64,000 nt of DNA from Nitrosarchaeum sp. (lineage in GTDB: Archaea > Thermoproteota > Nitrososphaeria > Nitrososphaerales > Nitrosopumilaceae). A program made the translations under genes and the position numbers. The DNA is taken from contig DASSYQ010000057.1 in assembly GCA_035703205.1 (NCBI GenBank), forward strand, positions 25,369 to 89,368, in the 5' to 3' direction. Positions 4,639 to 59,652 of the stretch are shown piece by piece. Positions within the stretch are counted from its first letter, which is position 1. Each line of letters opens with the position of its first letter. The notes under the pieces were generated by a model. It did no database searches. It saw only the letters and a program-made list of their open reading frames with translations, and had not been told where the DNA came from.

Positions 4639-5355
4639 TTGGGAAAAATTTACGCTGTGGGTGTAGGGCCAGGTTCGCCAAAATATGTTACTGAAATTGT
4701 AAGACAAGTAATACTGAATTGTGACATAATAATTGGTTACAAATACACATTAAAAACAATTGAAGATTTGATTGTAGGTAAAGAAATTTATGAAATTACT
4801 ATGAACAATCAAGAAGAATCATATCAAAAAATTCTTCCAGAACTAGGTAATCGTTCTTTGGTTATCCCATTTACTGGTGATGTAAATTTTTCAGAATCAG
4901 AAGTCGTAGATAGATTAATTGAGATTTTTGGGGAAGTAGAAATAATTCCAGGAATAAGCTCAATCCAAGTTGCTGCATCAAAAGCAAGAGTCCCACTTGA
5001 TAAATCCAAAATAATTACAATGCATGTAACAACCTCAATTGAAGAAAAGAAATTAGAATTACAAAAAGCATTGATTGATGGATATAGTGTAATTCTAGTT
5101 CCAAGACCATGGCCTAAACAACCTGATAAGCATTTTATGCCATCAGAAATTGCATTATATCTAAAAAATAATGGTTTTGATACTAGTGGTATGAAAGTTC
5201 ATGTTTTTGAAGCATTAACTACTGAAAATGAAACCAGTTTTATTGGAACTGTAAAAGATTTGGAAGGAAAAGAATTTTCTGATTTATCTGTAATGGTTTT
5301 TAATCAATCTACTTTGGATTCATATATGAATTACAAGTGGCAGTGGAAGCTCTAG
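4639..5355 (+). CDS. Tetrapyrrole (corrin) methyltransferase family protein, CbiE-like
   Basis: N-terminal KIYAVGVGPGSPKYVT...CDIIIGYKYTL is the SAM-dependent corrin/porphyrin methylase signature. TTG start. The exact step in the pathway cannot be assigned by eye. Confidence 0.6.
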   Translation: MGKIYAVGVGPGSPKYVTEIVRQVILNCDIIIGYKYTLKTIEDLIVGKEIYEITMNNQEESYQKILPELGNRSLVIPFTGDVNFSESEVVDRLIEIFGEVEIIPGISSIQVAASKARVPLDKSKIITMHVTTSIEEKKLELQKALIDGYSVILVPRPWPKQPDKHFMPSEIALYLKNNGFDTSGMKVHVFEALTTENETSFIGTVKDLEGKEFSDLSVMVFNQSTLDSYMNYKWQWKL

Positions 5356-8430: not shown

Positions 8431-9615
8431 ATCATCTTTGAAGGTCTTCTTTATCATTTCGGGCGAAACTGTAAGTTTGTACTTTTTTGTTCTCCCATGT
8501 ATTCCTTGATGAATTAATCTACCAGTAATGATTCCAGATAATTCGATTTCACTAAGCATTTGAGTAATTCGCCTTTGTGTTAATTCATCTCGTCCTACTA
8601 CCTTACACAATCCTTTGTAAGATGAATAAATTTCTCCTGTAGATGAACCCCCTGCCTTCATTATTGCAAGAATAACAAGTTTTTCGTGGAGTGGATATGA
8701 TTTCAGAGATGTTTCTTCCTTATTTTCTTCAATTTTTTGAGATGCTTCTCGTACATGATTTTCTGTGACCTTATCTGATTGTTGTCTTTCGGCAATTTCT
8801 CCTGCAACACGAATCAAGTCAATTGCTCTTCTTGCATCCCCATGTTCAGCTGCAGCCAAGGCAGCACATAGATTCAGGGCTGATTCTTCTACTGAGTTAG
8901 GGATAAATGCATCCTTAATTCGCTCTTCCAATATTTTATGAATTTGATCTCTATCATAATTTGTAAAAATTATTTCTTCTTCACCTAGACTACTAATTAC
9001 TCTAGGATCAAGTTTTTCTTTAAACGTGAGATCATTTGAAATCCCAACTAAAGTCAGTGAACCTTGTTTTAGACGTTCATTTGCTCTAGTTAGTTGATAT
9101 AGGATATCTTTCCCTGTTTTTGATACCAATTGTGCAAGATAATCAATCTCATCAATTACAAAAATTGCATTGATTTTGGATTCATCTATAGTAGTTAGTA
9201 TGCGTTTGAAGACTTCACTGGTTGCTAGACCTGTACCTGGTAGTTCTTTATCAGTCAAGCCTAATTGTCGTCCAAAACTTACCAATAACCCATAGAGGGT
9301 GGTTTCTTCTTTTGAGTTTGAATAAATTAGTTTAATTGGGAAATTTGATTTTTCTACTCTTTCTTGAATTTTATTAATTACTTTTTTAACCACCAGTGTT
9401 TTTCCAGTTCCAGGTTTACCATATACAAGTAAATTTGATGGTCTTGAATGTTTAAGGATAGGTAATAGTGATTGTGTTACTTGTTCTTGTTCAGAGTTTC
9501 TATGTTGTATGGTATCTGGAATGTATGTAAAATGTAGGATATCTCTATTTTTAATTATTGATTTTCCAGATTCAGCTGCATCAAGTAACCTATCTATCGG
9601 ATCAGACATACTCAC
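8407..9615 (-). CDS. cdc6: Orc1/Cdc6 replication initiator
   Basis: AAA+ Walker A (YGKPGTGKT), Walker B (IFVIDEID), sensor regions and a C-terminal winged helix. It overlaps the 3' end of polB by 24 nt, in convergent orientation. Confidence 0.92.
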   Translation of the reverse strand: MSMSDPIDRLLDAAESGKSIIKNRDILHFTYIPDTIQHRNSEQEQVTQSLLPILKHSRPSNLLVYGKPGTGKTLVVKKVINKIQERVEKSNFPIKLIYSNSKEETTLYGLLVSFGRQLGLTDKELPGTGLATSEVFKRILTTIDESKINAIFVIDEIDYLAQLVSKTGKDILYQLTRANERLKQGSLTLVGISNDLTFKEKLDPRVISSLGEEEIIFTNYDRDQIHKILEERIKDAFIPNSVEESALNLCAALAAAEHGDARRAIDLIRVAGEIAERQQSDKVTENHVREASQKIEENKEETSLKSYPLHEKLVILAIMKAGGSSTGEIYSSYKGLCKVVGRDELTQRRITQMLSEIELSGIITGRLIHQGIHGRTKKYKLTVSPEMIKKTFKDDLTLQDIV

Positions 9616-9854
9616 ACACCTATGTTTCTACTCAATAGTAACATAATGATAACTAAATTTAGAGAGTAAAGAAGAGAATAGTTATTCTAGTTTAGTTTGT
9701 AATTAATTATTTTTAGTTAGATTTTAGATTTTCAATAAAAAAAAATAAAAAAATAACAGAGTGGAAAGACAGGTGTGTGGGTTAATCCAAACCATATCCA
9801 TTGTTAACAATTTGTTAATTTTATGTTAAGAAATCTTCCAAAAAGGGCATTTTG

Positions 9855-9877
9855 ACCCCTTTATTTCCATTCCAGGC
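9855..9877. repeat. ORB-like repeat, copy 1 (ACCCCTTTATTTCCATTCCAGGC)
   Basis: Identical 23-mer to 9917-9939. The reverse complement GCCTGGAATGGAAATAAAGGGGT has a TGGAA-type element followed by a G-string. Confidence 0.65.
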
Positions 9878-9916
9878 GTTAAGATTGATGTTAACACTGT
9901 TAATCTCCTAAAACAT

Positions 9917-9939
9917 ACCCCTTTATTTCCATTCCAGGC
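9917..9939. repeat. ORB-like repeat, copy 2 (ACCCCTTTATTTCCATTCCAGGC)
   Basis: Perfect direct repeat of 9855-9877, 62 bp downstream. Confidence 0.65.
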
Positions 9940-10099
9940 ATGGATAGAGAGAGAAATAATGATAAATTGATTATTATATTGTTAATAACAAAAAACACTC
10001 TAGGCGTGGTCTAGGCAGTCAATGTTAACAAACCTCTTAGTTAACAAATATTCTGGGATCAATTGAACTGTTAACGGTAGATCCTCATAGATCTTAAAG

Positions 10100-10495
10100 A
10101 TGGCTAAAAAACGCATTAGAATTGATATGGAAGATGCTGATGGAGCACGATATGACATCAAATTAGAGGGTAATGTTACTAGAGAAAAAGTTCTAAAAAT
10201 ATTTGAAATGATGGACTTGATGAATATAGAAGAGGAGCAGGTTACTACCACTAATATGGATTCAATAGGCTCAAAAATATGGCATATTGTAGACAAGTTT
10301 TTCCCATTAGGAAAATTCACATCTACAAATATACTTGAAAAATATGAGGATGAATACAACGAGCCTGTAAAACTAAGTATAATCTCTACATATCTGTCCA
10401 GATTCTCTACCAAAGGTAAGATTGAAAGAATTAGAACTGGGCGTGAATGGACATATCAAATCATAAAACTAAGTCAAAAACAACAAGTTAAGTAA
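10100..10495 (+). CDS. Small origin-proximal protein with a C-terminal winged-helix-like region
   Basis: 131-aa ORF with balanced, charged composition. The overlapping minus ORF 10000..10413 is S/I/F-rich noise. The C-terminus (KLSIISTYLSRFSTKGKIERIRTGREWTYQI) looks like a wHTH recognition helix plus wing. Confidence 0.55.
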   Translation: MAKKRIRIDMEDADGARYDIKLEGNVTREKVLKIFEMMDLMNIEEEQVTTTNMDSIGSKIWHIVDKFFPLGKFTSTNILEKYEDEYNEPVKLSIISTYLSRFSTKGKIERIRTGREWTYQIIKLSQKQQVK

Positions 10496-10649
10496 TTGTA
10501 ATTTTACGCACAATAAGACGGTCTTTACCTAAGATTACCTTGACATATTCACCTTTTTGAATATCCATATACTTACGAAATTGTTTTGGAATAGAAATGG
10601 TCCCAGCAGACGTAATTTTCACTAAGACTTCATTTTCTTGTACTGACAT
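10488..10649 (-). CDS. AbrB/SpoVT-type (swapped-hairpin) DNA-binding protein, 53 aa
   Basis: Below the track cut-off. My translation is MSVQENEVLVKITSAGTISIPKQFRKYMDIQKGEYVKVILGKDRLIVRKITIT. The G-x-I-x-IPK-x-R...G-x-V pattern is the SpoVT-AbrB signature. Confidence 0.7.
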   Translation of the reverse strand: MSVQENEVLVKITSAGTISIPKQFRKYMDIQKGEYVKVILGKDRLIVRKITIT

Positions 10650-10782
10650 AATGTTATTATAATTTAATAATATATATAATTTAATATTTTCATTTTTTTA
10701 TAAAATATAATAGAAATTACCCTTTCTAGCCTATTTTTGATAAAATAAACTAAAATTAATACTGTAAAAACATAGAAAATTA

Positions 10783-11403
10783 TTATGCAATAATAGAATT
10801 TGATTGCATTGCTTCTATCTTCTCTTTACCTTTCTTTGTAATCGAATAAGTGTATGGTTTAGTATTGGTGTTTCTTTGAACATATCCATCTTCAAATAAC
10901 TTCTTCATTAATCTTGAAGTGTGCTCCCTACTTCGTTTTAATGTGATTTGTATATCACGTGATGTCATAGATTTGTCTGTGATTAGATGTAACACATGAT
11001 CAATTGCGTTATTGTGATCTAAATTAGGCATACGATGGACAGAAATTGACTTTTCTTCTCTCAAAATTTCTGTCTTTATTGGTTCAGTAGATGATTTTTC
11101 TATAATTTGTTGATTTTTAGCTAATTTTTCTAAAAACTGCTTCAATTCTAAATTGGGGTCCTCGATCTTCTGTTCAAAACCTTGCATTTCCATAGCATCT
11201 AGGCGTATTTTCATGTCAATTAACTGTCTTTCATAGTACTCTAAACGCTCTATTTGTGATGAATCGATCATTTCATTCTTAGTTTTGATGAATGGACGTA
11301 TTTTGTAATAACTATACAAACCTACCAAACCTACAACAAATGAAATTATCACACCAAGAATCACCTCTGGATCAGGAATTTCTATTAACATCACAAAAAT
11401 CAT
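10783..11403 (-). CDS. Membrane-anchored winged-helix (MarR-like) transcription regulator
   Basis: One N-terminal TM helix (ILGVIISFVVGLVGLYSYY), a central coiled coil and a C-terminal wHTH (MTSRDIQITLKRSREHTSRLMKKLFEDGYVQRNTNTKPYTYSITKKG). Confidence 0.55.
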   Translation of the reverse strand: MIFVMLIEIPDPEVILGVIISFVVGLVGLYSYYKIRPFIKTKNEMIDSSQIERLEYYERQLIDMKIRLDAMEMQGFEQKIEDPNLELKQFLEKLAKNQQIIEKSSTEPIKTEILREEKSISVHRMPNLDHNNAIDHVLHLITDKSMTSRDIQITLKRSREHTSRLMKKLFEDGYVQRNTNTKPYTYSITKKGKEKIEAMQSNSIIA

Positions 11404-11516
11404 TCATATATTGTGATTTATCATGATTGAACAATATTATTTCACACTTTAGATGAACAAGGACACACCCACATCACAAAAAATTTAATCATATTACTAC
11501 ACTATCAATAATGATA

Positions 11517-11879
11517 TCACACATTACATGCCTGACGTATCAACCTATCAATCACATCAATGACCTCATTTTCTCTTTCAGGGAATATATCACTCTCATT
11601 TATCACACGTATCTGTTCAGAAAGCTTTGATATCACATCAATATCATCAGGTAAAAGTATGCCTAAACCACGTAATAATATGATTGAATAGAATAATGCT
11701 ATTAATTTATCTCTAGACTGGCCAACTTGCCTGTAATACGCACCTTTACTAATATTGAATTTAGAGTTTAGAAGATCTTTCTGATTTAGAATAATTTCAA
11801 TTTGTCGCTCAGTAAATAATGATTTTTTGATAATTTGATGAATAATATTATTAAAATTAGATCGTTCAAACTCTGTCAT
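11517..11879 (-). CDS. Small helix-turn-helix protein (hypothetical regulator)
   Basis: 120-aa track ORF. FTERQIEIILNQ...ISKGAYYRQVGQSRDKL resembles a sigma-r4/LuxR-like HTH. Confidence 0.4.
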   Translation of the reverse strand: MTEFERSNFNNIIHQIIKKSLFTERQIEIILNQKDLLNSKFNISKGAYYRQVGQSRDKLIALFYSIILLRGLGILLPDDIDVISKLSEQIRVINESDIFPERENEVIDVIDRLIRQACNV

Positions 11880-11943
11880 AGCTATACAAATCTGTATACC
11901 TCATCACAATTAAACTTTAAAGAGTCATCTACAAACCCCTGTT

Positions 11944-12696
11944 ATGACTGGAAATAAAGTTGAATCATTCCTAAAATCTGAATTAAAAAAGAAGAATGCA
12001 TTATTGTTTGTACTAATTGATTCTGAAGTATCAAAGTTAGAGTCATCACGGAAACTAGCACAAGACGTTGAAAAGATAGGCGTATCTGCTATACTGATAG
12101 GTGGTTCATCAGCTACGGATCAAATTGAAATGGCCGAAGTAGTCAAAGGTATCAAAAAAGGTATCAAAATACCCATCATCCTCTTTCCTGGAAATATTAC
12201 TGGAGTTGTGCCTGATGCAGATGCAATTCTTTTTAGTTCATTGATGAATTCAGAAAATCCATATTTTATTACTCAGGCACAAGCACTAGGAGCACCAAGT
12301 GTTCTCAAATTTGGATTAGAACCATTACCAACAGCTTATTTGATCATTGGAGATGGAACCTCTGCATGGTTTGTAGGTTCTGCAAGAGGAATTCCATTTG
12401 AAAAACCAAAAATTGCTGCGGCATACGCACTTGCGGCACAGTTTCTTGGAATGAGATTTGTCTATTTAGAAGCAGGTTCAGGAGCAAAATCTAGTGTTAC
12501 ACCAGAGATGGTTAAAACAGTAAGAAAAGCCTTTAATGGATTTCTTATAGTTGGTGGTGGAATTAGAGATATTAAAACTGCAACAGAACTAGTCAAAGCA
12601 GGAGCAGATGCTCTAGTTATTGGAACCTTTTTAGAAAAAGGTGGCAGTGTTAAGAAATTAGCAGAAATAGCAAAAGCAATTCAAAGAAGCAAGTAA
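11944..12696 (+). CDS. Geranylgeranylglyceryl phosphate synthase (PcrB/GGGPS family)
   Basis: 250-aa TIM-barrel pattern typical of GGGPS: LIDSE..., ILIGGS, ILFPGN, YLEAGSGA, IVGGGIR. Confidence 0.8.
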   Translation: MTGNKVESFLKSELKKKNALLFVLIDSEVSKLESSRKLAQDVEKIGVSAILIGGSSATDQIEMAEVVKGIKKGIKIPIILFPGNITGVVPDADAILFSSLMNSENPYFITQAQALGAPSVLKFGLEPLPTAYLIIGDGTSAWFVGSARGIPFEKPKIAAAYALAAQFLGMRFVYLEAGSGAKSSVTPEMVKTVRKAFNGFLIVGGGIRDIKTATELVKAGADALVIGTFLEKGGSVKKLAEIAKAIQRSK

Positions 12697-12708
12697 TAGG
12701 ATTCTATT

Positions 12709-15700
12709 ATGTCTGAAAATGATGCTATTTCTCGTATTAGTGGTATCAAAATGCCAGATTACTATCTTAATTATTACACTAATCTTTCTAAAGATACCTA
12801 TACTATTTTTGAGCATGCAGCCTTAGCAAAATCCAGTCTGGTAGATTCTTCAGGAATAATTGAGCCTAAAATTGCATTTGATTTAGCAGATCGAGTCGCT
12901 AAAATGCACGATATCGATATTGCTGAACCTTTACGAGAATTATTAAAAATAAATGGAAAAGAACTAACTGCATTAATTATATCAAAAGAAATTGCATTAG
13001 GAAAATATTCTCTAAGTGATGCTACTTTAGAACAAAAATTAGATTTAGCAGTAAGAGTAGGTTTAGCTATAGTTACAGAGGGAGTTACAATTGCTCCATT
13101 ACAAGGAATCAGTGAAGTTAAGATAAAGAAAAACAAAGATGGTAGTGAATACCTCTCTGTATCTATTGCTGGACCAATGCGTTCAGCAGGTGGAACTGAA
13201 TCAGCGGTAACAATACTTATTGCTGATCATGTACGAAAAGCAGTCGGTTTATCAAAATACCAAGCAAATTGTTTTGATGATGAAACTGGTAGATTTGTTG
13301 AAGAGCTTCGAATCTATGAAAGAGAAGCAAGTAGTTTCCAATTTCATATTCTAGATGAAGATATTGAGCATGTTATATCAAATCTACCTGTAGAGTTAGA
13401 CGGCGTAGATACGGATCCTTTTGAAGTTGTAAATCACAAAGGAATGACTCGTATTAAAACAGATAGAGTTAGAGGAGGTGCATTAAGAGTTCTAAATGAC
13501 GGATTAATTGGAAGATCTAAGAAACTACTCAAAAGAATTGAACTTTACAAATTAGATGGTTGGGAATGGCTTGGTGACCTAAAGGGAGCAATTCAAACAG
13601 GAGATAATCAAGAAGATGCTGCAGCTAAAAGAATGCGTGAAGTCATTACAGGAAGATCCGTACTATCTATGCCTAACAAACTAGGTGGTTTTAGGTTAAG
13701 ATATGGTAGAGCATGTAATACAGGATTTGCAGCTGTAGGAATTAATCCTGTAATTGCTGAAATCTTGGATCATACTATTGCTGTAGGTACTCAAGTTAAA
13801 ATTGATATTCCAGGTAAAGGTGCAACCGTAGCTTTTGTAGATTCTATTGATACACCAATTGTTCGACTAAAAAATGGTAATGTAGTGAAAATAAAGGATG
13901 TAAAACATGGAATTGAAATCAAAAGTGAAATTGAAAAAATTCTTCATTTAGGTGATATTCTAATTTCATTTGGAGATTTCTTAGAGAACAATGCTCAACT
14001 TGTACCTACAGGATATGTAGAAGAATTTTGGATTGAAGAATTAAAAGAAAAATTAGAAAAATATGCACCAAATGATGAATTTCTAACCCAATTTCTAGCA
14101 AAAACTCCTACTTTAGATCAAGCATTGAAACTATCACTAGATTTTCAAATACCATTACACCCACATTATCTGTATTACTGGGATCAAATATCTTCCGAAG
14201 AACTCTCAAAAATATTACATCCAAACAAAATCAATGAAAATTCCATCGAATATTCCATAGAAGTAAAAAACATTCTTGAAAAACTTGGTGTACCACACAA
14301 GATGAATAACAACCAAATAATTCTGGAAAAAGAAGAAGCTAGAATTTTCTATAACTTATTGTTTAGACAAGAACCAAAGATTAATGATTTGTCTACGCCT
14401 GAAATTATTTCAAAATCATCAGGAATTCAAATTAAAAACAAATTCTCAACATCAATTGGAGTTAGAATCGGAAGACCTGAAAAAGCAGCTCCTAGACAAA
14501 TGAAACCACCAACACATGTCTTATTTCCAATAAATGATAAAGGAGGTCCAACTAGAGATCTCTTAAAAGCTTCAAGACAAGATAATTTTTTCACCAATAT
14601 TTTCAACAGATATTGTAATGAATGCAATGAACCATCAATTGGAATAAAATGCTCAAACTGTGGCAATAAGACATCAATAATTTACCGCTGTGGTAACTGT
14701 CGTGATAAACTTGATAATCCATTTTGTGAAAAATGTAAACGAAAAGCATCATCTCACTCACATCAGGCATTTCCATTAAAAACAAAGTTGTTAACAGCAC
14801 AAGAAAAAATAGGGTTACGCGCACAAGAGCCATTCAAGGGAGTCAAAGAATTAATCAATCAAGATAGAATTGCAGAACCGCTAGAAAAGGGTCTAGTTAG
14901 ACAAAACTTTGGTCTTACTGTATTCAAAGATGGAACCGTACGTTTTGATGCAACAAACTCCCCTCTCACTCAATTCAAACCATCATGGATTGGAACGTCT
15001 ATTGAAAAACTAAACAGTCTAGGTTATACTCACGATATTGATGGAAAACCACTAACAAACCCAGATCAGATAGTTGAACTTCGAATGCAAGATGTTATTA
15101 TTCCAAATGAAAGTGGAAGATACCTTGTATCTACATGTAAATACATTGATACTATCTTAGAAAAATTTTATGAAAAATCGATTTTCTATAATGTTAAAAA
15201 TACAGACGAATTAGTAGGTCATCTAATAATTGGTTTAGCACCTCACACATCTGTAGGTATTGTTGGAAGAATAATCGGTTATACCGAAACACATGTTTGT
15301 TTTGCTACTCCAAATTGGCATTCTGCTAAAAGAAGAGATGCAGATGGAGATGCTGATTCTATTATGCTCTTAATGGACAGTCTTCTAAATTTTTCAAGAC
15401 AATTTCTTTCTGATAGAATAGGTGGATTAATGGATGCACCATTATTGATCCAACCTCTTGTATTACCACATGAATCTCAACCACAAGCACATAATTTAGA
15501 AGTCGTTAAATTTCTACCACTTGAGTTCTTCAAATCAACTATTCATCAATACAAAGCTTCAGATGTCACATGCGTAGATATTATCAAATCTCGTCTTGAG
15601 ACAGAAAAACAATTTTTTGGATATTACTTTACACATTCTACAACTTCTCTTACTACATCAAAATCACGTAGTGCATATTCAACACTTGGTTCTATGCTTG

Positions 15701-16086
15701 ATAAATTCGACATGCAAATTAAAAATGCTGAATTAATCGATGCAGTAGATACATCTGAAATTGTTTCAAATGTAATTTCTACACATCTAGTTCCTGATAT
15801 TATGGGCAATCTTCGTGCCTATGCTAGACAAAATTTCAGATGTACTGGTTGTGGTAAATCATATCGTAGGATACCATTAATTCAAACTTGTATCTGTGGT
15901 CATGACTTAATTCCAACAATAACTAGAGGTTCTGTCGAAAAATATCTTAAACTTGCAAAGAGATTAGTTGAAAAGTATGATGTTGGCGCATACCAAAAAG
16001 GACGAATTCATGCACTCTCTGACGAAATCGATCTAGTCTTTGGAAAAAATAAAGGTGATCAATCACTATTAACAGATTACACTTAG
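12709..16086 (+). CDS. polC: DNA polymerase II (PolD) large subunit DP2
   Basis: 1125 aa with zinc-finger clusters (CNECNEPSIGIKCSNCG; CGNCRD...CEKC; CTGCGKSYRRIPL..CICGH). The catalytic-centre-like RRDADGDADS lies in a double-psi beta-barrel context. No intein-like insertion is evident. Confidence 0.92.
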   Translation: MSENDAISRISGIKMPDYYLNYYTNLSKDTYTIFEHAALAKSSLVDSSGIIEPKIAFDLADRVAKMHDIDIAEPLRELLKINGKELTALIISKEIALGKYSLSDATLEQKLDLAVRVGLAIVTEGVTIAPLQGISEVKIKKNKDGSEYLSVSIAGPMRSAGGTESAVTILIADHVRKAVGLSKYQANCFDDETGRFVEELRIYEREASSFQFHILDEDIEHVISNLPVELDGVDTDPFEVVNHKGMTRIKTDRVRGGALRVLNDGLIGRSKKLLKRIELYKLDGWEWLGDLKGAIQTGDNQEDAAAKRMREVITGRSVLSMPNKLGGFRLRYGRACNTGFAAVGINPVIAEILDHTIAVGTQVKIDIPGKGATVAFVDSIDTPIVRLKNGNVVKIKDVKHGIEIKSEIEKILHLGDILISFGDFLENNAQLVPTGYVEEFWIEELKEKLEKYAPNDEFLTQFLAKTPTLDQALKLSLDFQIPLHPHYLYYWDQISSEELSKILHPNKINENSIEYSIEVKNILEKLGVPHKMNNNQIILEKEEARIFYNLLFRQEPKINDLSTPEIISKSSGIQIKNKFSTSIGVRIGRPEKAAPRQMKPPTHVLFPINDKGGPTRDLLKASRQDNFFTNIFNRYCNECNEPSIGIKCSNCGNKTSIIYRCGNCRDKLDNPFCEKCKRKASSHSHQAFPLKTKLLTAQEKIGLRAQEPFKGVKELINQDRIAEPLEKGLVRQNFGLTVFKDGTVRFDATNSPLTQFKPSWIGTSIEKLNSLGYTHDIDGKPLTNPDQIVELRMQDVIIPNESGRYLVSTCKYIDTILEKFYEKSIFYNVKNTDELVGHLIIGLAPHTSVGIVGRIIGYTETHVCFATPNWHSAKRRDADGDADSIMLLMDSLLNFSRQFLSDRIGGLMDAPLLIQPLVLPHESQPQAHNLEVVKFLPLEFFKSTIHQYKASDVTCVDIIKSRLETEKQFFGYYFTHSTTSLTTSKSRSAYSTLGSMLDKFDMQIKNAELIDAVDTSEIVSNVISTHLVPDIMGNLRAYARQNFRCTGCGKSYRRIPLIQTCICGHDLIPTITRGSVEKYLKLAKRLVEKYDVGAYQKGRIHALSDEIDLVFGKNKGDQSLLTDYT

Positions 16087-52800: not shown

Positions 52801-53595
52801 TTGACTGGTAAGCTCTACATTGTTGGTGTTGGTCCTGGACATCATGATCATATGACGTTCAGAGCTAAACAAGTAATTGAAGAAAGCGACACAATTGTGG
52901 GATACGAAACTTATGTCAACTTAGTTCAAGATCTTATTGAAGGAAAAACAGTTCATCGATATGCAATGACGCAAGAGGTTGAACGTGCTCATCAATGTAT
53001 TGATCTAGCAAAATCTGGAAAAATAGTCTCACTTGTTTCAAGTGGTGATCCAGGAATTTATGGAATGGCAGGATTAATCTATGAAACGCTTGCAGCATCA
53101 AATTGGAATCCTAAAGATGGTTTACAAGTAGAAATAGTTCCAGGTGTTTCTGCTCTAAATTCATGCGCATCAATAATTGGTTCGCCATTAATGACAGATT
53201 TTGCGGTTGTCAGTATGAGTGATTTATTGGTACCATGGGAAATAATAACAAAAAGAGTTGAAGCCGCTGCACAAGGCGACTTTGTGATTGTCATCTACAA
53301 TCCAGCAAGCAAAAAAAGAATACATCAACTAGTAGATACAAGAAAAATTCTTTTAAAATACAGAAAGCCAACAACTCCTGTAGCAATAATTAAAGGTGCA
53401 TTCAGAGACTCACAAACAATTGTTATGACAGATTTAGAAAATCTTTCAAACCACTCTGATCAATTGGGAATGATTAGTACGGTAATTATTGGAAATTCAT
53501 CAACTTATACTTACAAAGATTTGATGATCAATCCTAGAGGTTACAAATCAAAATATAATTTAGAAGAACAAACAAATCCAAAACTCAAAGTCTAA
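52801..53595 (+). CDS. cbiH: Cobalt-factor III / precorrin-3B C17-methyltransferase
   Basis: KLYIVGVGPG..DHMT, TIVGYETY and VSSGDPGIYGMAGL are the CbiH/CobJ hallmarks. TTG start. Confidence 0.8.
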   Translation: MTGKLYIVGVGPGHHDHMTFRAKQVIEESDTIVGYETYVNLVQDLIEGKTVHRYAMTQEVERAHQCIDLAKSGKIVSLVSSGDPGIYGMAGLIYETLAASNWNPKDGLQVEIVPGVSALNSCASIIGSPLMTDFAVVSMSDLLVPWEIITKRVEAAAQGDFVIVIYNPASKKRIHQLVDTRKILLKYRKPTTPVAIIKGAFRDSQTIVMTDLENLSNHSDQLGMISTVIIGNSSTYTYKDLMINPRGYKSKYNLEEQTNPKLKV

Positions 53596-54638
53596 TAACT
53601 TTTCTTGATTGCTTCAAATAATTCTTCACTTAGGTTCAATTTTTCACGAATTGGCGAAATTATCTTAACTAGATATTCTCCAACAGTTTGTTTAAGATCA
53701 GTTGGATGTAATTTTTTATTTGCAAAATCAGATTCTAGCTGATTATAATCTATGTATGTCATATTTCCACCAAATTTTTCTGGTCTTTCTACCTTGATTT
53801 CATTAAATTCATGAAAGATGACGTGTTTTGAAATTTCTAATAGTGGATTATTCTGAATATTTGCTTCTTCACACCATGCTTTTTTGATCTTTGTTCTTAT
53901 TTCGTCATCAGAATTATGAATAAAAACTCCAGAATTAGGATCTGATTTACTCATTTTTCCTAAAATTTGTGAGTCATTTGTATCCGTAGGTTTTGAAAGA
54001 CCAGGTAATAATTTATGATGAACTGCTACTGGAACTTTCCATTTCATTTTTGGAAAAATCTCTCTAACTAACATGTGAATCTTCCTTTGATCCATACCTG
54101 CATGAGCTATATCGACATCCAAAAAGTGAATATCCACTGCTTGCATTGGTGGATACAATAATTTTGCAAGATCTATTTTTTCCTCATTTTCTGATCGTCC
54201 CATGATAGTTAGTGTTCTCATTGTTCTTGCTAATGACATGTGTTTGGTAAATTTTACAAGTTCCGACCAATACTCTGGTTTTTCTTGATAAAGATTTGAA
54301 CCTAAGACAATGTTTGCATCAGGACATACTAATTTGAAAGCATCTTGATAATATTTTGAAACTTTAGAGATCATCTCCCAATTTCCTCCTAATTTATCAT
54401 TGATCATAGTATGCCAATCTGCAAGAAATACGGTACATCTCACACCAGCTTTGATAAAATCATTGATCTTGAAACCTGTACTAATTAAACTACCTAAATG
54501 TAAGAATCCTGAAATTTCCAAACCGATGTAATGTTTTGGAGAAGAATTTGTTTTGAATAATTCAACTAATTCATCATGTGTAACTACCTCTTCAGTAGGA
54601 GGTCTTTCAATTAATTCGATTTTTTCAGTAATATCCAA
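53592..54638 (-). CDS. tyrS: Tyrosine--tRNA ligase (archaeal type)
   Basis: HIGH-like SGFLHLGS and KMSKS. MDQRKIHML, RPEKFGG and KLHPTDLK closely parallel the M. jannaschii TyrRS sequence as I recall it. Confidence 0.88.
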   Translation of the reverse strand: MDITEKIELIERPPTEEVVTHDELVELFKTNSSPKHYIGLEISGFLHLGSLISTGFKINDFIKAGVRCTVFLADWHTMINDKLGGNWEMISKVSKYYQDAFKLVCPDANIVLGSNLYQEKPEYWSELVKFTKHMSLARTMRTLTIMGRSENEEKIDLAKLLYPPMQAVDIHFLDVDIAHAGMDQRKIHMLVREIFPKMKWKVPVAVHHKLLPGLSKPTDTNDSQILGKMSKSDPNSGVFIHNSDDEIRTKIKKAWCEEANIQNNPLLEISKHVIFHEFNEIKVERPEKFGGNMTYIDYNQLESDFANKKLHPTDLKQTVGEYLVKIISPIREKLNLSEELFEAIKKSY

Positions 54639-54738
54639 ATCAAAACAACTTCTGGGATGTAGGTCTATAAAGTTATTTGAAATAATAACTTAATTGGAAT
54701 TTGCAAGATTTGAAATAGTCTAATGATCAATCATTATT

Positions 54739-54945
54739 ATGACACTTGAAGAAGGATTGGAACTCATTGAAAACTACAAAAAAGGTTTACAGAAATTTCT
54801 AGATACATTACCTGAACAAGCAGTACAATTAGGCTCTGAAATGATTAAAATCCTAACAATGAGCTCAAAAAATGAGATTGCAAATCTGGAAGCAATAGAA
54901 AAAGCATTAAAACGTCCATCTAAACACGAATCAGATTTATCCTAA
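54739..54945 (+). CDS. Hypothetical small helical protein (68 aa)
   Basis: Track ORF with an all-helical composition. It is preceded by a 7-bp-arm palindrome at 54721-54736. Confidence 0.35.
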   Translation: MTLEEGLELIENYKKGLQKFLDTLPEQAVQLGSEMIKILTMSSKNEIANLEAIEKALKRPSKHESDLS

Positions 54946-54995
54946 TCATAGAACTGATTTTTATTATTCATTGATAAATCAAACATAGGAATAGA

Positions 54996-55355
54996 TTGAA
55001 AATTATGATTGAGGATAAATGGCAGCGAGGAGAACGAAGAATTATTACAATCATAGAAAAATTTACAACTTATAAAAACTGGATTTCCTTCATGCAATTA
55101 TCAATAGAAGCAAAAATTGAACATCAAACATTAACAAACTATATTGATCTATTGATCAAAAGAGGTATTATCACAGAATACAAAGGGAAAAATAAATCAA
55201 GATTATTTTGTATGTCTGGACATCATGATGATATTGAATATAATGAAAAATTCAGAACTTTTACACAAAAAGATTTAATGAGTAAAGAAGAAGCAAATGA
55301 GAAACTCTCAAAAATATACAAATTAGGAATAGACAATCTTTATCACAAATATTGA
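54996..55355 (+). CDS. Hypothetical winged-helix protein (119 aa)
   Basis: ISFMQLSIEAKIEHQTLTNYIDLLIKRGIITEYKGKNKSRLF looks like a wHTH. The start may be the TTG at 54996 or the ATG at 55005. Confidence 0.4.
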   Translation: MKIMIEDKWQRGERRIITIIEKFTTYKNWISFMQLSIEAKIEHQTLTNYIDLLIKRGIITEYKGKNKSRLFCMSGHHDDIEYNEKFRTFTQKDLMSKEEANEKLSKIYKLGIDNLYHKY

Positions 55356-55440
55356 TTGTTAAATAAATTAAATATCTAAAATGGATTATCCGAGAAATAT
55401 TTTAACAAATGTTGTTTTTTGTTAAATGAAGTAATTGATC

Positions 55441-55668
55441 CTATTTACAATTTTTTTTATGTTTCCTTAGATCTTCTGAGGAATCAAATTCTGTGCCGCA
55501 TGCTCTACATCTTTCTTTTTTCTTGTTGTGTGCAACTTCTTGATGTTTTTTTAGCTTTTCTGGATCCGAAAGTACGGTTCCACACTTTTTGCACTTTGTC
55601 TCATTAGAACTACCAAACAATCCCATGTTTAGTATAGTATGACCTAGTAGAAAAACTAATTTTTCCAT
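55441..55668 (-). CDS. Classical C2H2-type zinc-finger protein (two fingers)
   Basis: Finger 1 is CKKCGTVLSDPEKLKKHQEVAH (C-x2-C-x12-H-x4-H). Finger 2 is CRACGTEFDSSEDLRKHKKNC (C-x2-C-x12-H-x3-C). Confidence 0.7.
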   Translation of the reverse strand: MEKLVFLLGHTILNMGLFGSSNETKCKKCGTVLSDPEKLKKHQEVAHNKKKERCRACGTEFDSSEDLRKHKKNCK

Positions 55669-55760
55669 TATAGATCACTCTGTTTTGATAAATTCTCAAA
55701 ACAAACAAAAAATCGCCAATTTAACAGATTATTTTTGCGAATACTTTCATAGGCGAAAAT

Positions 55761-56159
55761 ATGAACAAAATTATGGTTTCTAAACAATTTGAAGAGCAAT
55801 TTTACAAATTTTGTACTGATAATAATATTGAATGGGATGATAAGAAAAGAAGGTGGAGTAAGCCATTTCATCCCAAAATAAAAAATATCTGGGTTAAATC
55901 TGATAATGGAGATTTTCTAAACTCTTTACGTCCTAAAGAAAAAGGCTACTATGATTCTAAATTTTTGGGATGGGAACTTGGAGCCATAAAGAAAGAATAT
56001 TGTTTTTGGTGTGGCAGAATTATAGAGGAAAACAGAAAGAATGATCCACGTTCAGAAAGAGTAAAATTTTGTAACCCAGCACATAGAAAGGCATTTGGTA
56101 AAGTAAAAGCTGATCAAGAAAAACTAGGAAAATTGTTCACATCTAAACAAATATCTTAA
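55761..56159 (+). CDS. Hypothetical basic protein with a C-terminal zinc-ribbon-like motif
   Basis: CFWCGRIIEENRKNDPRSERVKFCNPAHRKAF (C-x2-C...C-x3-H) inside a Lys/Arg-rich 132-aa ORF. Confidence 0.4.
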   Translation: MNKIMVSKQFEEQFYKFCTDNNIEWDDKKRRWSKPFHPKIKNIWVKSDNGDFLNSLRPKEKGYYDSKFLGWELGAIKKEYCFWCGRIIEENRKNDPRSERVKFCNPAHRKAFGKVKADQEKLGKLFTSKQIS

Positions 56160-56160
56160 T

Positions 56161-56736
56161 TTATACTTCTGATTCTTCTAAATTTTTTCTTGGTTTAGTA
56201 CTAAGATAAAATGCATGAGCACTAATAATAAATGCGGCAAGGAAAACTTTTGTTGCAAAAACTAAATTCCACGGTCTATCCGGATCAGGATATGCAATTG
56301 ATAACATGTCTATATTTGGCATATTCCCTTCAATCATACCTGCAGTAATCTTTGCATTTAAGACCGTAAAATTGTATAATACCTCATAGAGTGTAATAAT
56401 TGCAAATCCTAATAACATTAGTTGAAGTAATGCCATTCTCCAACCAACAATTTTGTTTCCTGCAGTTCTTCTCCATCCTATTCTTGAAACACAATACCAT
56501 CCAATAATTGTAGAAAAAAATATCCAAGTAGAAATTCTTGAAAAATTCTCAAATGGTATGAAAGTATTTTGTATTACTTCGCCCATTACATACGTTCCAT
56601 TTTCCATCCATTCTACTGTAGTAATGTAAACTCCAAAAACAAGACTTGAAATCATTATGAATGCACAAACATAGAAAATGTATAGGTAAACTTTGTAACC
56701 GGCATCTGATTTTTCGAGATGACGTCGATTCATCAT
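56161..56736 (-). CDS. Integral membrane protein (about 5 TM helices), unknown function
   Basis: 191-aa track ORF with hydrophobic helices. The overlapping ORF 56549..56770 (-) is in another frame and looks spurious. Confidence 0.45.
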   Translation of the reverse strand: MMNRRHLEKSDAGYKVYLYIFYVCAFIMISSLVFGVYITTVEWMENGTYVMGEVIQNTFIPFENFSRISTWIFFSTIIGWYCVSRIGWRRTAGNKIVGWRMALLQLMLLGFAIITLYEVLYNFTVLNAKITAGMIEGNMPNIDMLSIAYPDPDRPWNLVFATKVFLAAFIISAHAFYLSTKPRKNLEESEV

Positions 56737-56815
56737 GCGAATTTCCTAATTTTGAAATATAAAAATTCATGCCTATTTCATGAGATTTATAGACTAGTTT
56801 TGGAGAGAATACCTA

Positions 56816-57904
56816 TTGAAAATTGCAATCAATATTCCATTCGTAGGTAAAGAAGAAATTACTGCAGTTACTTCCATTCTCAAAAAAGGGGCACTCACAT
56901 CAGCAGCTAGTCATGGAGGAGAACATGTACAAGCATTTGAAAAATCAGCATCAGAATTTATTAAATCAAAATATGTAATTGCTGTAAATTCTGGCACAGC
57001 GGCTTTGCAAGCTGCACTTTATGCTTTAGATATAAAAAAAGGAGATGAAGTACTTGTCCCATCTTTTACATTTGTTGCAACAGCTAATTCTGTAGTGTCC
57101 ACTGGAGCTAAACCTGTCTTTGTTGATATACTCAAAGAAAATTATACTATGGATCCTGATGATTTAGAAAAAAAGATTACTAAAAAGACTAAAGCAATTA
57201 TGCCAGTTCATCTTTATGGAAATGTAGCATTTCTTGATAGAATTTCAGAAATTGCTAAAAAACATAATTTGCCAATTATAGAAGACTCTGCACAATCATT
57301 AGGTTCTACGTATAAAGGAAAACATGCTGGAACTTTTTTTGATTTAGGTTGTTGGAGTATGTATCCTGCAAAAGTAATGACTGCAGGAGAAGGAGGATTT
57401 ATCGCAACAAACAATAAAAAATTACATGATAAACTACTGATGATTCGAAATCATGGAATGGTTCATGGATACGACACTAGAATATTTGGATTAAACCTAA
57501 GATTGCCGGAGATTAGTGCTGCAATCGCAACAATACAAATGAAAAAACTACCTAATTTTCTTAAAACAAGACAAAAGAATGCAAACCTTTTATCAAAATT
57601 GATTTCTGATTTGGATATTACGCTTCCACATCAAAGAAATTATGAAAATGTAAATTGGTATCTTTACACAATAGCTACTTCAAAACGAGACAAAATTTTA
57701 AAAAAACTTAATGCTAAAGGAATTGGTGCAGCCTCTTACTATCCAATTCCAGTTCATAAAACACCATTTTATCAACAAAAAATCAAACTTCCGATAACAG
57801 AATGGGCATCATCCCATGTTTTATCTCTACCAATACACCCTAAAGTTACTAGTAAAAATATTGAATTTATAGCAAAAACCCTTCGTGAAATACTAAATGA
57901 ATAG
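56816..57904 (+). CDS. DegT/DnrJ/EryC1/StrS-family PLP-dependent sugar aminotransferase
   Basis: NSGTAALQAAL, PSFTFVATAN, EDSAQSLGS and the Lys context SMYPAKVMTAGEGG. TTG start. Confidence 0.85.
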   Translation: MKIAINIPFVGKEEITAVTSILKKGALTSAASHGGEHVQAFEKSASEFIKSKYVIAVNSGTAALQAALYALDIKKGDEVLVPSFTFVATANSVVSTGAKPVFVDILKENYTMDPDDLEKKITKKTKAIMPVHLYGNVAFLDRISEIAKKHNLPIIEDSAQSLGSTYKGKHAGTFFDLGCWSMYPAKVMTAGEGGFIATNNKKLHDKLLMIRNHGMVHGYDTRIFGLNLRLPEISAAIATIQMKKLPNFLKTRQKNANLLSKLISDLDITLPHQRNYENVNWYLYTIATSKRDKILKKLNAKGIGAASYYPIPVHKTPFYQQKIKLPITEWASSHVLSLPIHPKVTSKNIEFIAKTLREILNE

Positions 57905-58367
57905 TCTTGAAAATGTAATTGGAGAATTATGCAAGGTCATATTGCCAATTCCTGAAGAATCGTACATAGGAAATACTGATTCTTCAGTAGCAATTTGTAC
58001 GCTTTCAAGTATGGAATTACTCAAAAAAATTTCAAATTCTGAACTTTTAAATCATATTTACATTGTTGGAAGACTACTTTCTGAAAACAAAGGTATTGAT
58101 TCTATAATTAAATATGTAAATCAGAATAAAAAAATTAAAACCATTATAGTTTGTGGCAAAGAAGTTTGGGGTCATAAAACTGGTCACTCTCTATTTGAAT
58201 TACATAAAAATGGAATTGATAATCACGGAAGAATAATTAATTCAACTAGTCCTAATCCAATTCTTACTGTAACTAAATCAGAAATAAAATATTTTCAAAA
58301 TGAAATTAATCTTGTAAATATGATCAATGAAGTAAATTTTGACACAATCAAACAATTTGTAATCTAA
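57897..58367 (+). CDS. MtrA-like protein (homologue of the cobamide-binding domain of tetrahydromethanopterin S-methyltransferase subunit A), soluble
   Basis: VAICTLSS...GRLLSENKGIDSIIKYVNQNKKIKTIIVCGKEVWGHKTGHSLFELHKNGIDNHGRII parallels methanogen MtrA (...[43 protein letters not shown].DGRIV, recalled). No C-terminal TM helix. Confidence 0.6.
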   Translation: MNSLENVIGELCKVILPIPEESYIGNTDSSVAICTLSSMELLKKISNSELLNHIYIVGRLLSENKGIDSIIKYVNQNKKIKTIIVCGKEVWGHKTGHSLFELHKNGIDNHGRIINSTSPNPILTVTKSEIKYFQNEINLVNMINEVNFDTIKQFVI

Positions 58368-58708
58368 TATCCTTTTCTTTGCCTTTCTCGATTTATCTCA
58401 TTTTTCTTCTTGTATTCTTCAAGAATATCATCAGGAGTCAAATTTAGTTCTAATGACGCCTGAATTACAAAATGCCAAATATCAATTAATTCTTCTCTTG
58501 CTTCAGCTACATTAAATGGAATTGGAGTTTTCCACCACTTCCAATTTGTAGTTCTTTGTAGTTCTACTGCTTCATGCATAATTGCAGTACATAATGCAGA
58601 AATTCGTCCTTCAGAATCTTTTGGATATCTATCATGCTTCATCATTTCTGCTAAACCTTTTTGTAGTTTGAATATGGTTTCTAAACGATCTTCTATTTTT
58701 TCAGACAT
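58364..58708 (-). CDS. All-alpha NTP pyrophosphohydrolase (dimeric dUTPase / MazG-like)
   Basis: HEAVELQRTTNWKWWK and EELIDIWHFV correspond to the E-x-x-E / E-x-x-D metal motifs of dimeric dUTPase-like enzymes. Confidence 0.6.
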   Translation of the reverse strand: MSEKIEDRLETIFKLQKGLAEMMKHDRYPKDSEGRISALCTAIMHEAVELQRTTNWKWWKTPIPFNVAEAREELIDIWHFVIQASLELNLTPDDILEEYKKKNEINRERQRKGY

Positions 58709-58758
58709 ATCTTATGAGTATTCAATTCATCTGCAGAAATTATGGAACTTAAATCTTT

Positions 58759-59652
58759 TTAGAAACGGATCATTTTTTCATACAGTTTAACTCGTTTTGT
58801 AATATCTGTTTTTTTAATCTGTAGTAATCCATCTAATCCATATTTCTCAACAGCAAAAGAACCTAAAACATTTCCATAAACTACAGCCTTTTTAATATCT
58901 GATAAATTGGTTGAATTTTTACTAGCTAAATATCCTATCATTGCACCTGCAAAAGAATCTCCAGCACCTGTAGGATCAACTACATCTTCCAACGAAAATC
59001 CTGCAGATGGAAATATCACATCATCAAAAAACATCATTGACCCATGTTCACCTTTTTTAATAATTACATATTTTGCGCCCCACTCCATCATTTTTTTTGC
59101 ACATTTGATCAAATTGAATTCTTTTGTTAGTAGTTTTGCTTCTTCGTCATTTATCACAACAGCATCTACAGCTTTAATCATCTTAATTACTGACTCTCTT
59201 TTTGTAGATATCCAAAATTCAATAGTATCACACATTGAAAATTTTACTTTGTCAAATTCTTTGATAAGATTAGAATTTTGATCAGGATCATTATTTGCTA
59301 AATACACAAATTGTGATTTTCTATATTCTTCAGGAACTGCAGGTTTGAAATCTGCAAGTACATTAAGCTCAGTTTTCAAAGTTTCTCTGGAACTAAGTGT
59401 TTTATCATAACTTCCATCATAACGAAAAGTTTTCCCCTCTTTTACAGTCAATCCACGTAAATCAAGATATTTTGATAAAATTTTATAATACTCATTAGGA
59501 AAATCTTTTCCTACCACTGCTATCAATCCGGTATTTACAAAATTACTTGCTGATATAGCTGCAAACGTTGCAGCTCCACCCAGAACATCTTTCAAAGTTT
59601 TTTTGGGAGTTCTGATAGTATCTAACGCAGTTGAACCAAATACAGTTAACAT
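58759..59652 (-). CDS. PfkB-family carbohydrate/nucleoside kinase
   Basis: N-terminal GGAA motif (LGGAATFAA). The C-terminal anion-hole motif is DPTGAGDSFAGAMIGYL. Confidence 0.85.
   Translation of the reverse strand: MLTVFGSTALDTIRTPKKTLKDVLGGAATFAAISASNFVNTGLIAVVGKDFPNEYYKILSKYLDLRGLTVKEGKTFRYDGSYDKTLSSRETLKTELNVLADFKPAVPEEYRKSQFVYLANNDPDQNSNLIKEFDKVKFSMCDTIEFWISTKRESVIKMIKAVDAVVINDEEAKLLTKEFNLIKCAKKMMEWGAKYVIIKKGEHGSMMFFDDVIFPSAGFSLEDVVDPTGAGDSFAGAMIGYLASKNSTNLSDIKKAVVYGNVLGSFAVEKYGLDGLLQIKKTDITKRVKLYEKMIRF

Follow-up and report, generated by a model that had tools for sequence, protein, structure and literature searches.

The window analysed here is the whole stretch of 64,000 nucleotides (nt) taken from contig DASSYQ010000057.1 of Nitrosarchaeum sp., and the subject of this work is a short open reading frame (ORF) within it that encodes a relative of MtrA, subunit A of the methanogen methyltransferase complex MtrA-H. 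The source is a Nitrosopumilaceae ammonia oxidizer; the window has a low guanine-cytosine (GC) content of 31% and carries archaeal housekeeping genes, namely Cdc6, PolD, thermosome and PCNA. The genes at the centre of the locus, with lengths in amino acids (aa), are the following:

56816..57904, forward strand: DegT/DnrJ/EryC1/StrS-type aminotransferase dependent on pyridoxal phosphate, 362 aa, matched by PF01041 over its full length (E-value 1e-113)
57897..57904, forward strand: 8-nt overlap ATGAATAG, holding the stop codon of the DegT-type gene and the start codon of the MtrA-like ORF
57897..58367, forward strand: MtrA-like ORF, 156 aa, a soluble stand-alone alpha/beta domain of the corrinoid-binding type (PF04208, PDB matches, AlphaFold2)
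58364..58708, reverse strand: dUTPase_2 or all-alpha nucleoside triphosphate pyrophosphohydrolase gene, 114 aa (PF08761, 64.9 bits)

The MtrA-like ORF, which starts with ATG, is a true member of the PF04208 (MtrA) family standing outside any Mtr complex, and on this point we have practically no doubt. The Pfam profile matches with 85.1 bits (gathering score 25) and an E-value of 5.6e-24, the match spanning residues 22-153 of the protein and positions 15-143 of the 173 in the profile. Sequence matches in the PDB are MtrA structures, namely 5laa (E 1e-15), 8q3v and 5l8x. The AlphaFold2 model, computed from a 58-sequence alignment, has a mean predicted local distance difference test (pLDDT) score of 90.3, with residues 1-20 alone poorly defined. 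When this model was compared with the PDB by Foldseek, the top seven matches were MtrA chains (5l8x, 5laa, 9qtr) with template modelling (TM) scores of 0.75-0.79 and E-values of 2e-13 to 3e-11; the next match has an E-value of 9e-3, so that MtrA is the sole significant fold. The first-pass annotation, made by eye, had aligned the protein with the corrinoid-binding domain of MtrA and proposed a profile search as a check; the alignment is borne out by the PF04208 match, the PDB sequence matches and the predicted fold, and the search returned a significant hit to the family.

The protein ends with the soluble domain, whereas canonical MtrA proteins of about 240 aa (P0179 and P0243 in alignment A1) run some 80 residues further into a juxtamembrane segment and a membrane helix. 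A Pfam scan of the window, covering all likely genes of at least 100 aa and some shorter ones near the locus, found no Mtr subunit and no MtrH-type pterin methyltransferase; the small MtrB, MtrF and MtrG, which would escape such a scan because of its size cut-off, were not specifically searched. No match to these families appeared in related loci either, the short subunits B, F and G again not having been specifically searched there. The missing membrane helix and the missing mtrB-H genes, both remarked upon in the first-pass annotation, thus agree with the alignment and with the scanned ORFs, MtrB, MtrF and MtrG lying beyond the scan. A true Mtr complex was rejected on the grounds that the helix is absent, that no partner subunit was seen among the scanned ORFs and that the score falls under the equivalog cut-off.

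The residues that contact cobalamin in 5laa are His84, Glu54, Asn55, Thr53, Gly57, Asn64, Tyr18 and Val61 (Wagner et al., 2016, PMC4915002). Alignment to 5laa maps them onto the window protein as listed here, together with the two segments discussed below:

His84 of MtrA (cobalt ligand): His93, CAT codon at 58173..58175, forward strand
Glu54 (hydrogen bond to His84): Glu63
Asn55 (propionamide contact): Asn64
Thr53 (nucleotide tail): Ser62
Gly57 (nucleotide tail): Gly66
Asn64 of MtrA (nucleotide tail): Tyr73, changed
Tyr18 (sandwiches the benzimidazole): Tyr23, offset by one residue in the alignment
Val61 (sandwiches the benzimidazole): Ile70
58080..58094, forward strand: loop S62-E63-N64-K65-G66, equivalent to Thr53-Glu54-Asn55-Leu56-Gly57 of MtrA (contacts after Wagner 2016)
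57897..57956, forward strand: clade-specific N-terminal segment, residues 1-20 (alignments A1 and A2)

The Thr53-Gly57 loop of MtrA carries the His-Glu hydrogen-bond relay as well as propionamide and nucleotide-tail contacts, and His93 of the window protein lies in the motif C86-G87-x4-G92-H93-x2-G96. Conservation was assessed on the orthologous ORF taken from 176 loci, which yielded 164 unique sequences. Glu63, Asn64 and Gly66 are invariant in all 164, as are Cys34, Cys86 and Pro121, while His93 is kept in 163 and Ser62 in 162, and 161 have an aromatic residue at position 23. Conservation in the clade is highest at the equivalents of the cobalamin-contact residues of 5laa, leaving aside Asn64 of MtrA, and the E-N-x-G and G-H-x-x-G loops are common to the clade, canonical MtrA and the fusion relatives described below. 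To judge from this conservation, the corrinoid-contact loops of the clade are under strong constraint. The histidine earlier noticed in a G-H-x-T-G context is the one that aligns with His84 of MtrA, and its loss among orthologues, which had been named as a way to disprove the assignment, was not observed.

The clade also has features of its own. Its members begin with a segment of the form G9-x2-C12-x4-P17, which canonical MtrA lacks and in which Gly9, Cys12 and Pro17 are near-invariant (Cys12, codon 57930-57932, is present in 160 of the 164 sequences). A helix is predicted for residues 3-15 at low confidence (pLDDT about 51 in the AlphaFold2 model). The invariant Cys34 (codon 57996-57998) stands where MtrA has Val, bringing the conserved cysteines to three (Cys12, Cys34 and Cys86), of which Cys86 is common to canonical MtrA too.

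The MtrA-like protein belongs to a distinct clade that extends across ammonia-oxidizing Nitrososphaeria. A database search returned 2298 homologues, the closest being Nitrosarchaeum proteins; those with 77-100% identity, all 156 aa long, come from Nitrosarchaeum and Thaumarchaeota genomes and metagenomes. Relatives were matched in 387 genomes when one genome per GTDB species was scanned, and the labels of the best 80 of these are nearly all Nitrosopumilaceae or Nitrososphaerota, two contigs being labelled otherwise. Among 1.84 billion cluster representatives there are 492 family members at E <=1e-3, 13 of them below E 1e-30. The MtrA domain is complete in 118 of 159 sequences (150 representatives plus extras), and 21 of those 118 carry the N-terminal motif of the clade. 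These clade sequences sit together, apart from fusions with DUF4346, in a neighbour-joining tree; this rough tree, based on distances, has no support values and was used for clade grouping alone. The searches for loci started from a 7-sequence alignment (A3), with distant members sought in metagenomes by means of alignment A5; labels such as 'Nitrososphaerales-type' are provisional, having been assigned from GC content, synteny and one NCBI name (P0135). We considered whether the gene might be a remnant of methanogenesis in decay and rejected this in view of the 164 unique intact sequences, the invariant ligand loops and the spread over two orders.

As a side observation on these public records, contig L081 (CBDHCY010000004.1, 'Leptospiria bacterium') and contig L047 ('Thermoplasmatales archaeon') carry a typical Nitrosopumilus gene block, and L081 equals L082 in coordinates and percent identities for all genes compared. 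Both are probably mis-binned contigs in public metagenome-assembled genomes.

The DegT-type protein upstream scores under every NCBIfam equivalog cut-off, the best being PseC (283 against 423), with a LegC-like model at 253 against 420, and its best PDB match is 7b0d, a 'glutamine--scyllo-inositol transaminase' (E 7.5e-79). Its linkage to the MtrA-like gene was followed in a first survey of 82 loci and then in a full survey of 177, window included; since the loci are the best matches to two queries, the following counts of the upstream coupled gene are not population frequencies:

DegT-type aminotransferase: 117 of 177 loci
PNPOx-like split-barrel protein: 30 of 177 loci
Unannotated 320-aa protein: 3 of 177 loci
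None of these three: 19 of 177 loci
Contig too short to tell: 8 of 177 loci

Across the 117 DegT loci, in which the MtrA-like protein is 48-100% identical to that of the window, the junction between the two genes is an overlap of 4 nt in 81, of 8 nt in 29 and of 1 nt in 2, and a gap of 2 nt in 4 and of 18 nt in 1. Eleven Nitrosopumilaceae loci of the first survey lack DegT and keep every other neighbour, and the full survey contains 14 dUTPase_2-linked loci without it, among them the GC-rich L095/L096 and L083/L084. No Nitrososphaerales-type locus surveyed has DegT within 4 kilobases (kb). In the thermophile-type loci L102 and L103 a DegT orthologue (57-58% identity) occurs 2-3 kb upstream of the PNPOx-MtrA-like pair, with an ArsA/Get3-like gene between them, and from this order the Nitrosopumilales adjacency may stem from an older and looser neighbourhood. 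Within one order, then, the coupling to DegT is real, though the MtrA-like gene can do without it there, and elsewhere it is replaced; the coupling is no property of the MtrA-like family. Among the scanned window ORFs, neither a glycan cluster nor other sugar-pathway genes were found near the DegT-type gene. Of what the first-pass annotation had said about this gene, the 8-nt overlap is confirmed at 57897..57904, and its conservation holds in part, being tight in 117 of 177 loci but lineage-restricted, with a PNPOx-like gene instead in 30 and neither in 19. The suggested link to sugar or cell-surface modification is not supported in the form proposed, given the missing glycan cluster, the 11 otherwise syntenic loci without DegT and the replacement by PNPOx-like genes elsewhere.

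The PNPOx-like flavoprotein gene is the coupled upstream gene in Nitrososphaerales-type and thermophile-type loci, 30 in all. It encodes about 130 aa (L085:1743-2132, L097:388-786, L103:3595-3999 and about 27 further, e.g., L109, L111, L117, L130 and L157), and its junctions with the MtrA-like gene range from -4 to +20 nt. Two PNPOx-like proteins that were compared are 48% identical, and their MtrA-like partners 36%. The best PDB relative is the split-barrel protein Rv2991, which we take to be an F420-binding flavin/deazaflavin oxidoreductase (FDOR); several enzymes of this group act on tetrapyrroles. A search of the window for a separate PNPOx-like, DUF4346 or ThyA-like gene found none.

On the other side, the dUTPase_2 gene is convergent with the MtrA-like gene, their 3' ends overlapping by 4 nt, and the PDB relatives of its product are the dimeric dUTPases 2yay and 1w2y. 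This is the most constant neighbour of all, present at 154 of 175 assessable loci of both Nitrosopumilales-type and Nitrososphaerales-type. The latter keep it though the MtrA-like protein is 38-46% identical and both outer sides differ, whereas thermophile-type loci have a cyclophilin-like gene in its position. The MtrA-like and dUTPase_2 genes may be paired because their functions are linked, or because the adjacency became fixed.

The remaining features of the window that bear on the locus are these:

56161..56736, reverse strand: predicted membrane protein of 191 aa, conserved, without a Pfam family, divergent from the DegT-type gene
58759..59652, reverse strand: PfkB-family kinase gene (PF00294), syntenic in Nitrosopumilales only
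52801..53595, forward strand: tetrapyrrole methylase gene (CbiH/CobJ-like, PF00590), 4.3 kb upstream of the MtrA-like ORF
4639..5355, forward strand: second tetrapyrrole methylase gene, 52.5 kb from the MtrA-like ORF

In DegT-less loci the gene of the 191-aa membrane protein precedes the MtrA-like gene by about 50-215 nt. The nearer methylase gene is placed between a DUF7482 protein gene and a tyrosyl-tRNA synthetase gene, an order kept across Nitrosopumilales, and the synthetase gene together with small unrelated genes separates it from the MtrA-like gene. Within the window the two methylase genes stand apart from one another and from other cob/cbi genes. Both are present, as the first-pass annotation had pointed out; at 4.3 kb and 52.5 kb, behind unrelated genes, they are weak evidence alone. 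A CobA/CobO/BtuR-type adenosyltransferase gene, divergently oriented, is adjacent to the MtrA-like gene in L083/L084 and one gene away in L087-L089, which represent two related lineages, and CbiD is found 4 kb away in L083.

Two further observations concern the surroundings. Soil-type lineages repeatedly have, close to the MtrA-like gene, the gene of an unannotated protein of about 320 aa without a Pfam family, either directly upstream or just past the dUTPase_2 gene (examples are L087:5022-5984 and, past dUTPase_2, L109, L111, L117, L127, L131, L157 and others). Positions 6976-16086 of the window hold the PolD small subunit, Cdc6/Orc1 and PolD large subunit genes, with a GGGP-synthase-like PcrB gene between; a replication origin may be close to the window.

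Outside the clade, most of the nearest relatives join MtrA to PterinBD-DUF4346 (PF14251), a domain which Pfam names pterin-binding. These fusions are 33-39% identical to the window protein with up to 101 bits (HMMER); the NCBIfam model NF002128 may describe this type. Fifty-six of the 118 complete-domain sequences are MtrA+DUF4346 fusions, 9 of the 118 also have a ThyA-like domain, and one relative adds an ArsR helix-turn-helix (HTH) domain to MtrA+DUF4346. The equivalent of His93 is kept in all DUF4346 and ThyA-like fusions checked. Triple fusions of MtrA, PterinBD-DUF4346 and a thymidylate-synthase-like domain, 490-540 aa long (P0308, P0219, P0316-P0320, P0255 and P0267), retain a catalytic-Cys motif and are rare; a search directed at them gave 7 further clusters, 6 with the ThyA-like domain. 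One such fusion lies in an operon:

L178:5465-8658 (GCA_030615175.1, contig JAUWZX010000001.1): DCD/dUTPase, fusion, thymidylate kinase, second DCD/dUTPase

No mention of the MtrA-DUF4346-ThyA-like architecture was found in the literature. The DUF4346 domain is absent from the window protein, which stops after the MtrA domain, and no ThyA-like sequence was found in the window or in related ammonia-oxidizer loci. In some other MtrA+DUF4346 proteins an ArsR-type HTH precedes the protein or is fused to it (L179:5633-7566 and P0180), and the L179 locus has DsbD-like, MerT, HMA and glutaredoxin genes within about 6 kb, a context which hints that some family members take part in metal or redox sensing.

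We propose that the MtrA-like protein is a stand-alone, base-off/His-on cobamide one-carbon (C1) carrier of ammonia-oxidizing Nitrososphaeria that works outside any Mtr complex, and we hold the chances for and against this reading as a whole to be evenly balanced. Its parts differ in strength: the conserved contact residues make it probable that the protein binds a cobamide, and the role of methyl carrier, drawn by analogy, is a tentative suggestion that we would sooner doubt than assume. The cobamide would be bound in the manner of MtrA, base-off/His-on, with His93, kept in place by Glu63, as the lower ligand of the cobalt, the nucleotide tail lying in a pocket formed by Ser62, Gly66, Ile70 and the aromatic residue 23, and the upper corrin face left exposed. 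Cycling between Co(I) and CH3-Co(III), the protein could then carry C1 (methyl) units between donor and acceptor enzymes, a proposal made because MtrA, the sole characterized member of the family, offers this analogy. The MtrA-like gene comes second in a closely coupled pair of genes, the first of which varies by lineage, being of the DegT type in Nitrosopumilales and PNPOx-like in Nitrososphaerales and thermophilic lineages, where the PNPOx-like flavoprotein could reduce inactive Co(II) back to Co(I). We infer cobamide binding, methyl carriage and the reductase role of the PNPOx-like protein alike, and C1 carriage in particular from the family precedent, the fusion partners of relatives and the possible reductive activation by the PNPOx-like protein. 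The contexts (PNPOx-like, CobA/CobO and the DUF4346/ThyA-like fusions) hint at corrinoid or C1 chemistry.

Several results weigh against a C1 carrier of this kind. The protein falls under the curated cut-offs of all NCBIfam MtrA models, reaching 74.2 bits with the canonical MtrA equivalog TIGR01111 (cut-off 249.15) and 137.8 bits with its best model, the 186-aa 'MtrA' subfamily NF002126 (cut-off 161). The meander motif of MtrA, GAIPF/YxEN, reads SPNPILT here, Pro121 alone being kept, and the equivalent of MtrA Asn64, a nucleotide-tail contact, is Tyr, His or Phe in the clade. No methyl-donor or methyl-acceptor methyltransferase was linked to the MtrA-like gene in the contexts examined, the Pfam-scanned window ORFs include no MtrH-like or pterin-binding gene, and a profile built from ten DUF4346 segments found nothing in the window or in related ammonia-oxidizer loci. 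Because the upstream partner differs between lineages, no single partner is implied, and the CobA neighbourhood could equally indicate B12 handling rather than methyl transfer. Finally, within the syntenic block (52801-59652 compared with L001-L082) the MtrA-like gene is the least conserved, with 61-89% identity; its block neighbours are 67-98% identical, above the MtrA-like gene in nearly every locus, and the ligand loops are nonetheless invariant.

Other explanations have to be weighed. The protein might handle or escort B12, holding cob(II)alamin for reduction and adenosylation and delivering it to methylmalonyl-CoA mutase, ribonucleotide reductase (RNR) or MetH. The CobA/CobO/BtuR-type gene next to it in L083/L084 and one gene off in L087-L089, the CbiD and CbiH-like genes 4 kb off in L083 and 4.3 kb off in the window, and a PNPOx-like partner that could be a corrinoid reductase are consistent with this; the CobA neighbourhood is nevertheless confined to two related lineages with shared synteny, where the genes are divergent, the fusion partners in the family indicate C1 transfer, and we know of no B12 chaperone with the MtrA fold, so that we consider such a role unlikely. 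The fold might also have been kept and corrinoid binding lost, with Cys12, Cys34, Cys86 and His93 holding a metal or other ligand or the protein having a structural or regulatory role. In this direction point the clade-specific Cys34 (invariant) and Cys12 (near-invariant), the loss of the meander motif and the altered Asn64 equivalent, as well as relatives that are fused to an ArsR HTH or lie beside an ArsR-type gene with MerT and HMA a few kb downstream. The strongest constraint falls exactly on the corrinoid-contact loops of MtrA, however, Cys86 is also conserved in canonical MtrA, and the N-terminal segment, modelled at low confidence, permits no claim about the geometry of a cysteine cluster; we regard lost binding as distinctly improbable.

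The two most conspicuous neighbours suggest functions of their own. In one, the MtrA-like protein would be the small B12-binding subunit of a two-component enzyme with the DegT aminotransferase, acting in amino-sugar or cell-surface glycan modification; separate small B12-binding subunits are known from glutamate mutase and lysine 5,6-aminomutase. The stop/start overlap of 8 nt in the window, the coupling kept in 117 loci while the MtrA-like protein ranges over 48-100% identity, and the DegT orthologue 2-3 kb upstream of the PNPOx-MtrA-like pair in L102/L103 argue for it. We think it very unlikely all the same: the 11 syntenic Nitrosopumilaceae loci and L095/L096 keep the MtrA-like gene without DegT, PNPOx-like genes replace DegT in 30 loci, no Nitrososphaerales-type locus has it within 4 kb, other sugar-pathway genes are lacking nearby, and the adjacency could reflect gene loss from an ancestral DegT-ArsA-PNPOx-MtrA order. 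The dUTPase_2 gene, in turn, suggests that the protein supplies or relays a C1 unit to thymidylate synthesis, within deoxyuridine/thymidine metabolism. For this speak the overlapping convergent pair found in 154 of 175 loci across orders while the outer genes change, and the relatives that fuse MtrA, DUF4346 and a ThyA-like domain with the catalytic Cys motif, one of them in the L178 operon with dUTPases and thymidylate kinase. Convergent genes are not co-transcribed, though, and an overlap of 3' ends can lock two genes side by side even if their functions are unrelated; few proteins have the ThyA-like fusion (the 7 further clusters, 6 with the domain), ThyA-like and DUF4346 sequences are absent from the window and from ammonia-oxidizer related loci, most MtrA-DUF4346 proteins occur in other contexts such as L179, and thermophile-type loci have the cyclophilin-like gene instead of dUTPase_2. 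A thymidylate role is accordingly a slim prospect in our estimation, and we hold it highly unlikely that the protein is the stand-alone version of a cobamide C1 module serving an unrecognized B12-linked thymidylate or deoxynucleotide C1 step in these very abundant archaea.

The proposed C1 carrier can be set beside several known systems. With MtrA of the methanogen MtrA-H complex (5l8x, 8q3v, 9qtq) it shares the alpha/beta fold (TM 0.75-0.79) and the ligand loops T/S-E-N-x-G and C-G-x4-G-H-x2-G with the cobalt His and its Glu, but it is 26-31% identical, lacks the juxtamembrane segment, the helix and the meander motif, has the added N-terminal segment with its near-invariant Cys, and comes from an archaeon that oxidizes ammonia aerobically. 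Methanogens also have cytoplasmic MtrA homologues (e.g., 5laa of Methanothermus fervidus, crystallized with cobalamin), which are likewise stand-alone soluble domains, of about 160-180 aa, with the His84/Glu54 pair. The window protein falls within the cytoplasmic type as Wagner et al. (2016) delimit it, being shorter than 215 aa, without a membrane segment and with His84 kept (as His93). The methanogen proteins have 60-97% identity to MtrA proper (Wagner et al., 2016, PMC4915002), whereas the present clade has about 30% and differs further in its N-terminal motif and in its conserved gene contexts. Compared with the MtrA+PterinBD-DUF4346 fusions the ligand loops are identical, and the window protein lacks the DUF4346, ThyA-like and HTH domains. 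The B12 modules of the MetH/MutS type, with a DxHxxG Rossmann domain, embody a similar principle, in which a small Rossmann-like module offers a base-off/His-on cobamide to partner enzymes; they are unrelated in sequence, the Foldseek matches to MetH are marginal (E 0.02-0.08, TM 0.36-0.39), and the cobalamin in MtrA binds the opposite side of the sheet from that used in these domains (Wagner, 2016, PMC4915002).

The first-pass annotation had expected a stand-alone corrinoid protein linked to sugar or cell-surface modification to be new biology. What stands of this is a soluble MtrA-type protein in a non-methanogen, the sugar-linked idea being weakly supported. JGI and NCBI records of Nitrosarchaeum and Thaumarchaeota already give several orthologues the name 'tetrahydromethanopterin S-methyltransferase subunit A', and MtrA homologues with a mostly conserved His84 have been described from bacteria and non-methanogenic archaea (Wagner et al., 2016, PMC4915002), so that the claim of novelty lacks support in that form; the finding is an already-annotated member of a published family, with no demonstrated new system. 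No paper discussing the MtrA-like protein in ammonia-oxidizing archaea was found in the literature; the 'MtrA' of the N. evergladensis genome paper proved to be an unrelated two-component regulator.

Ammonia-oxidizing archaea make cobalamin, and the B12-dependent proteins listed for them are MetH, class II RNR and methylmalonyl-CoA mutase (Doxey et al., 2015, PMC4303638). The MtrA-like protein would be an overlooked fourth candidate. The gene contexts supply concrete candidate partners for it in the DegT-type, PNPOx-like and dUTPase_2 proteins, and the ThyA-like fusions are a further lead. For metagenome surveys, the finding is a caution that 'mtrA' matches in Nitrososphaeria should not be counted as methanogenesis genes. 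If the thymidylate/C1 reading were true, it would add a fourth cobamide-dependent function to the reasons for which these archaea make B12; as they are major cobalamin producers, a conserved fourth candidate marks a functional gap worth closing.

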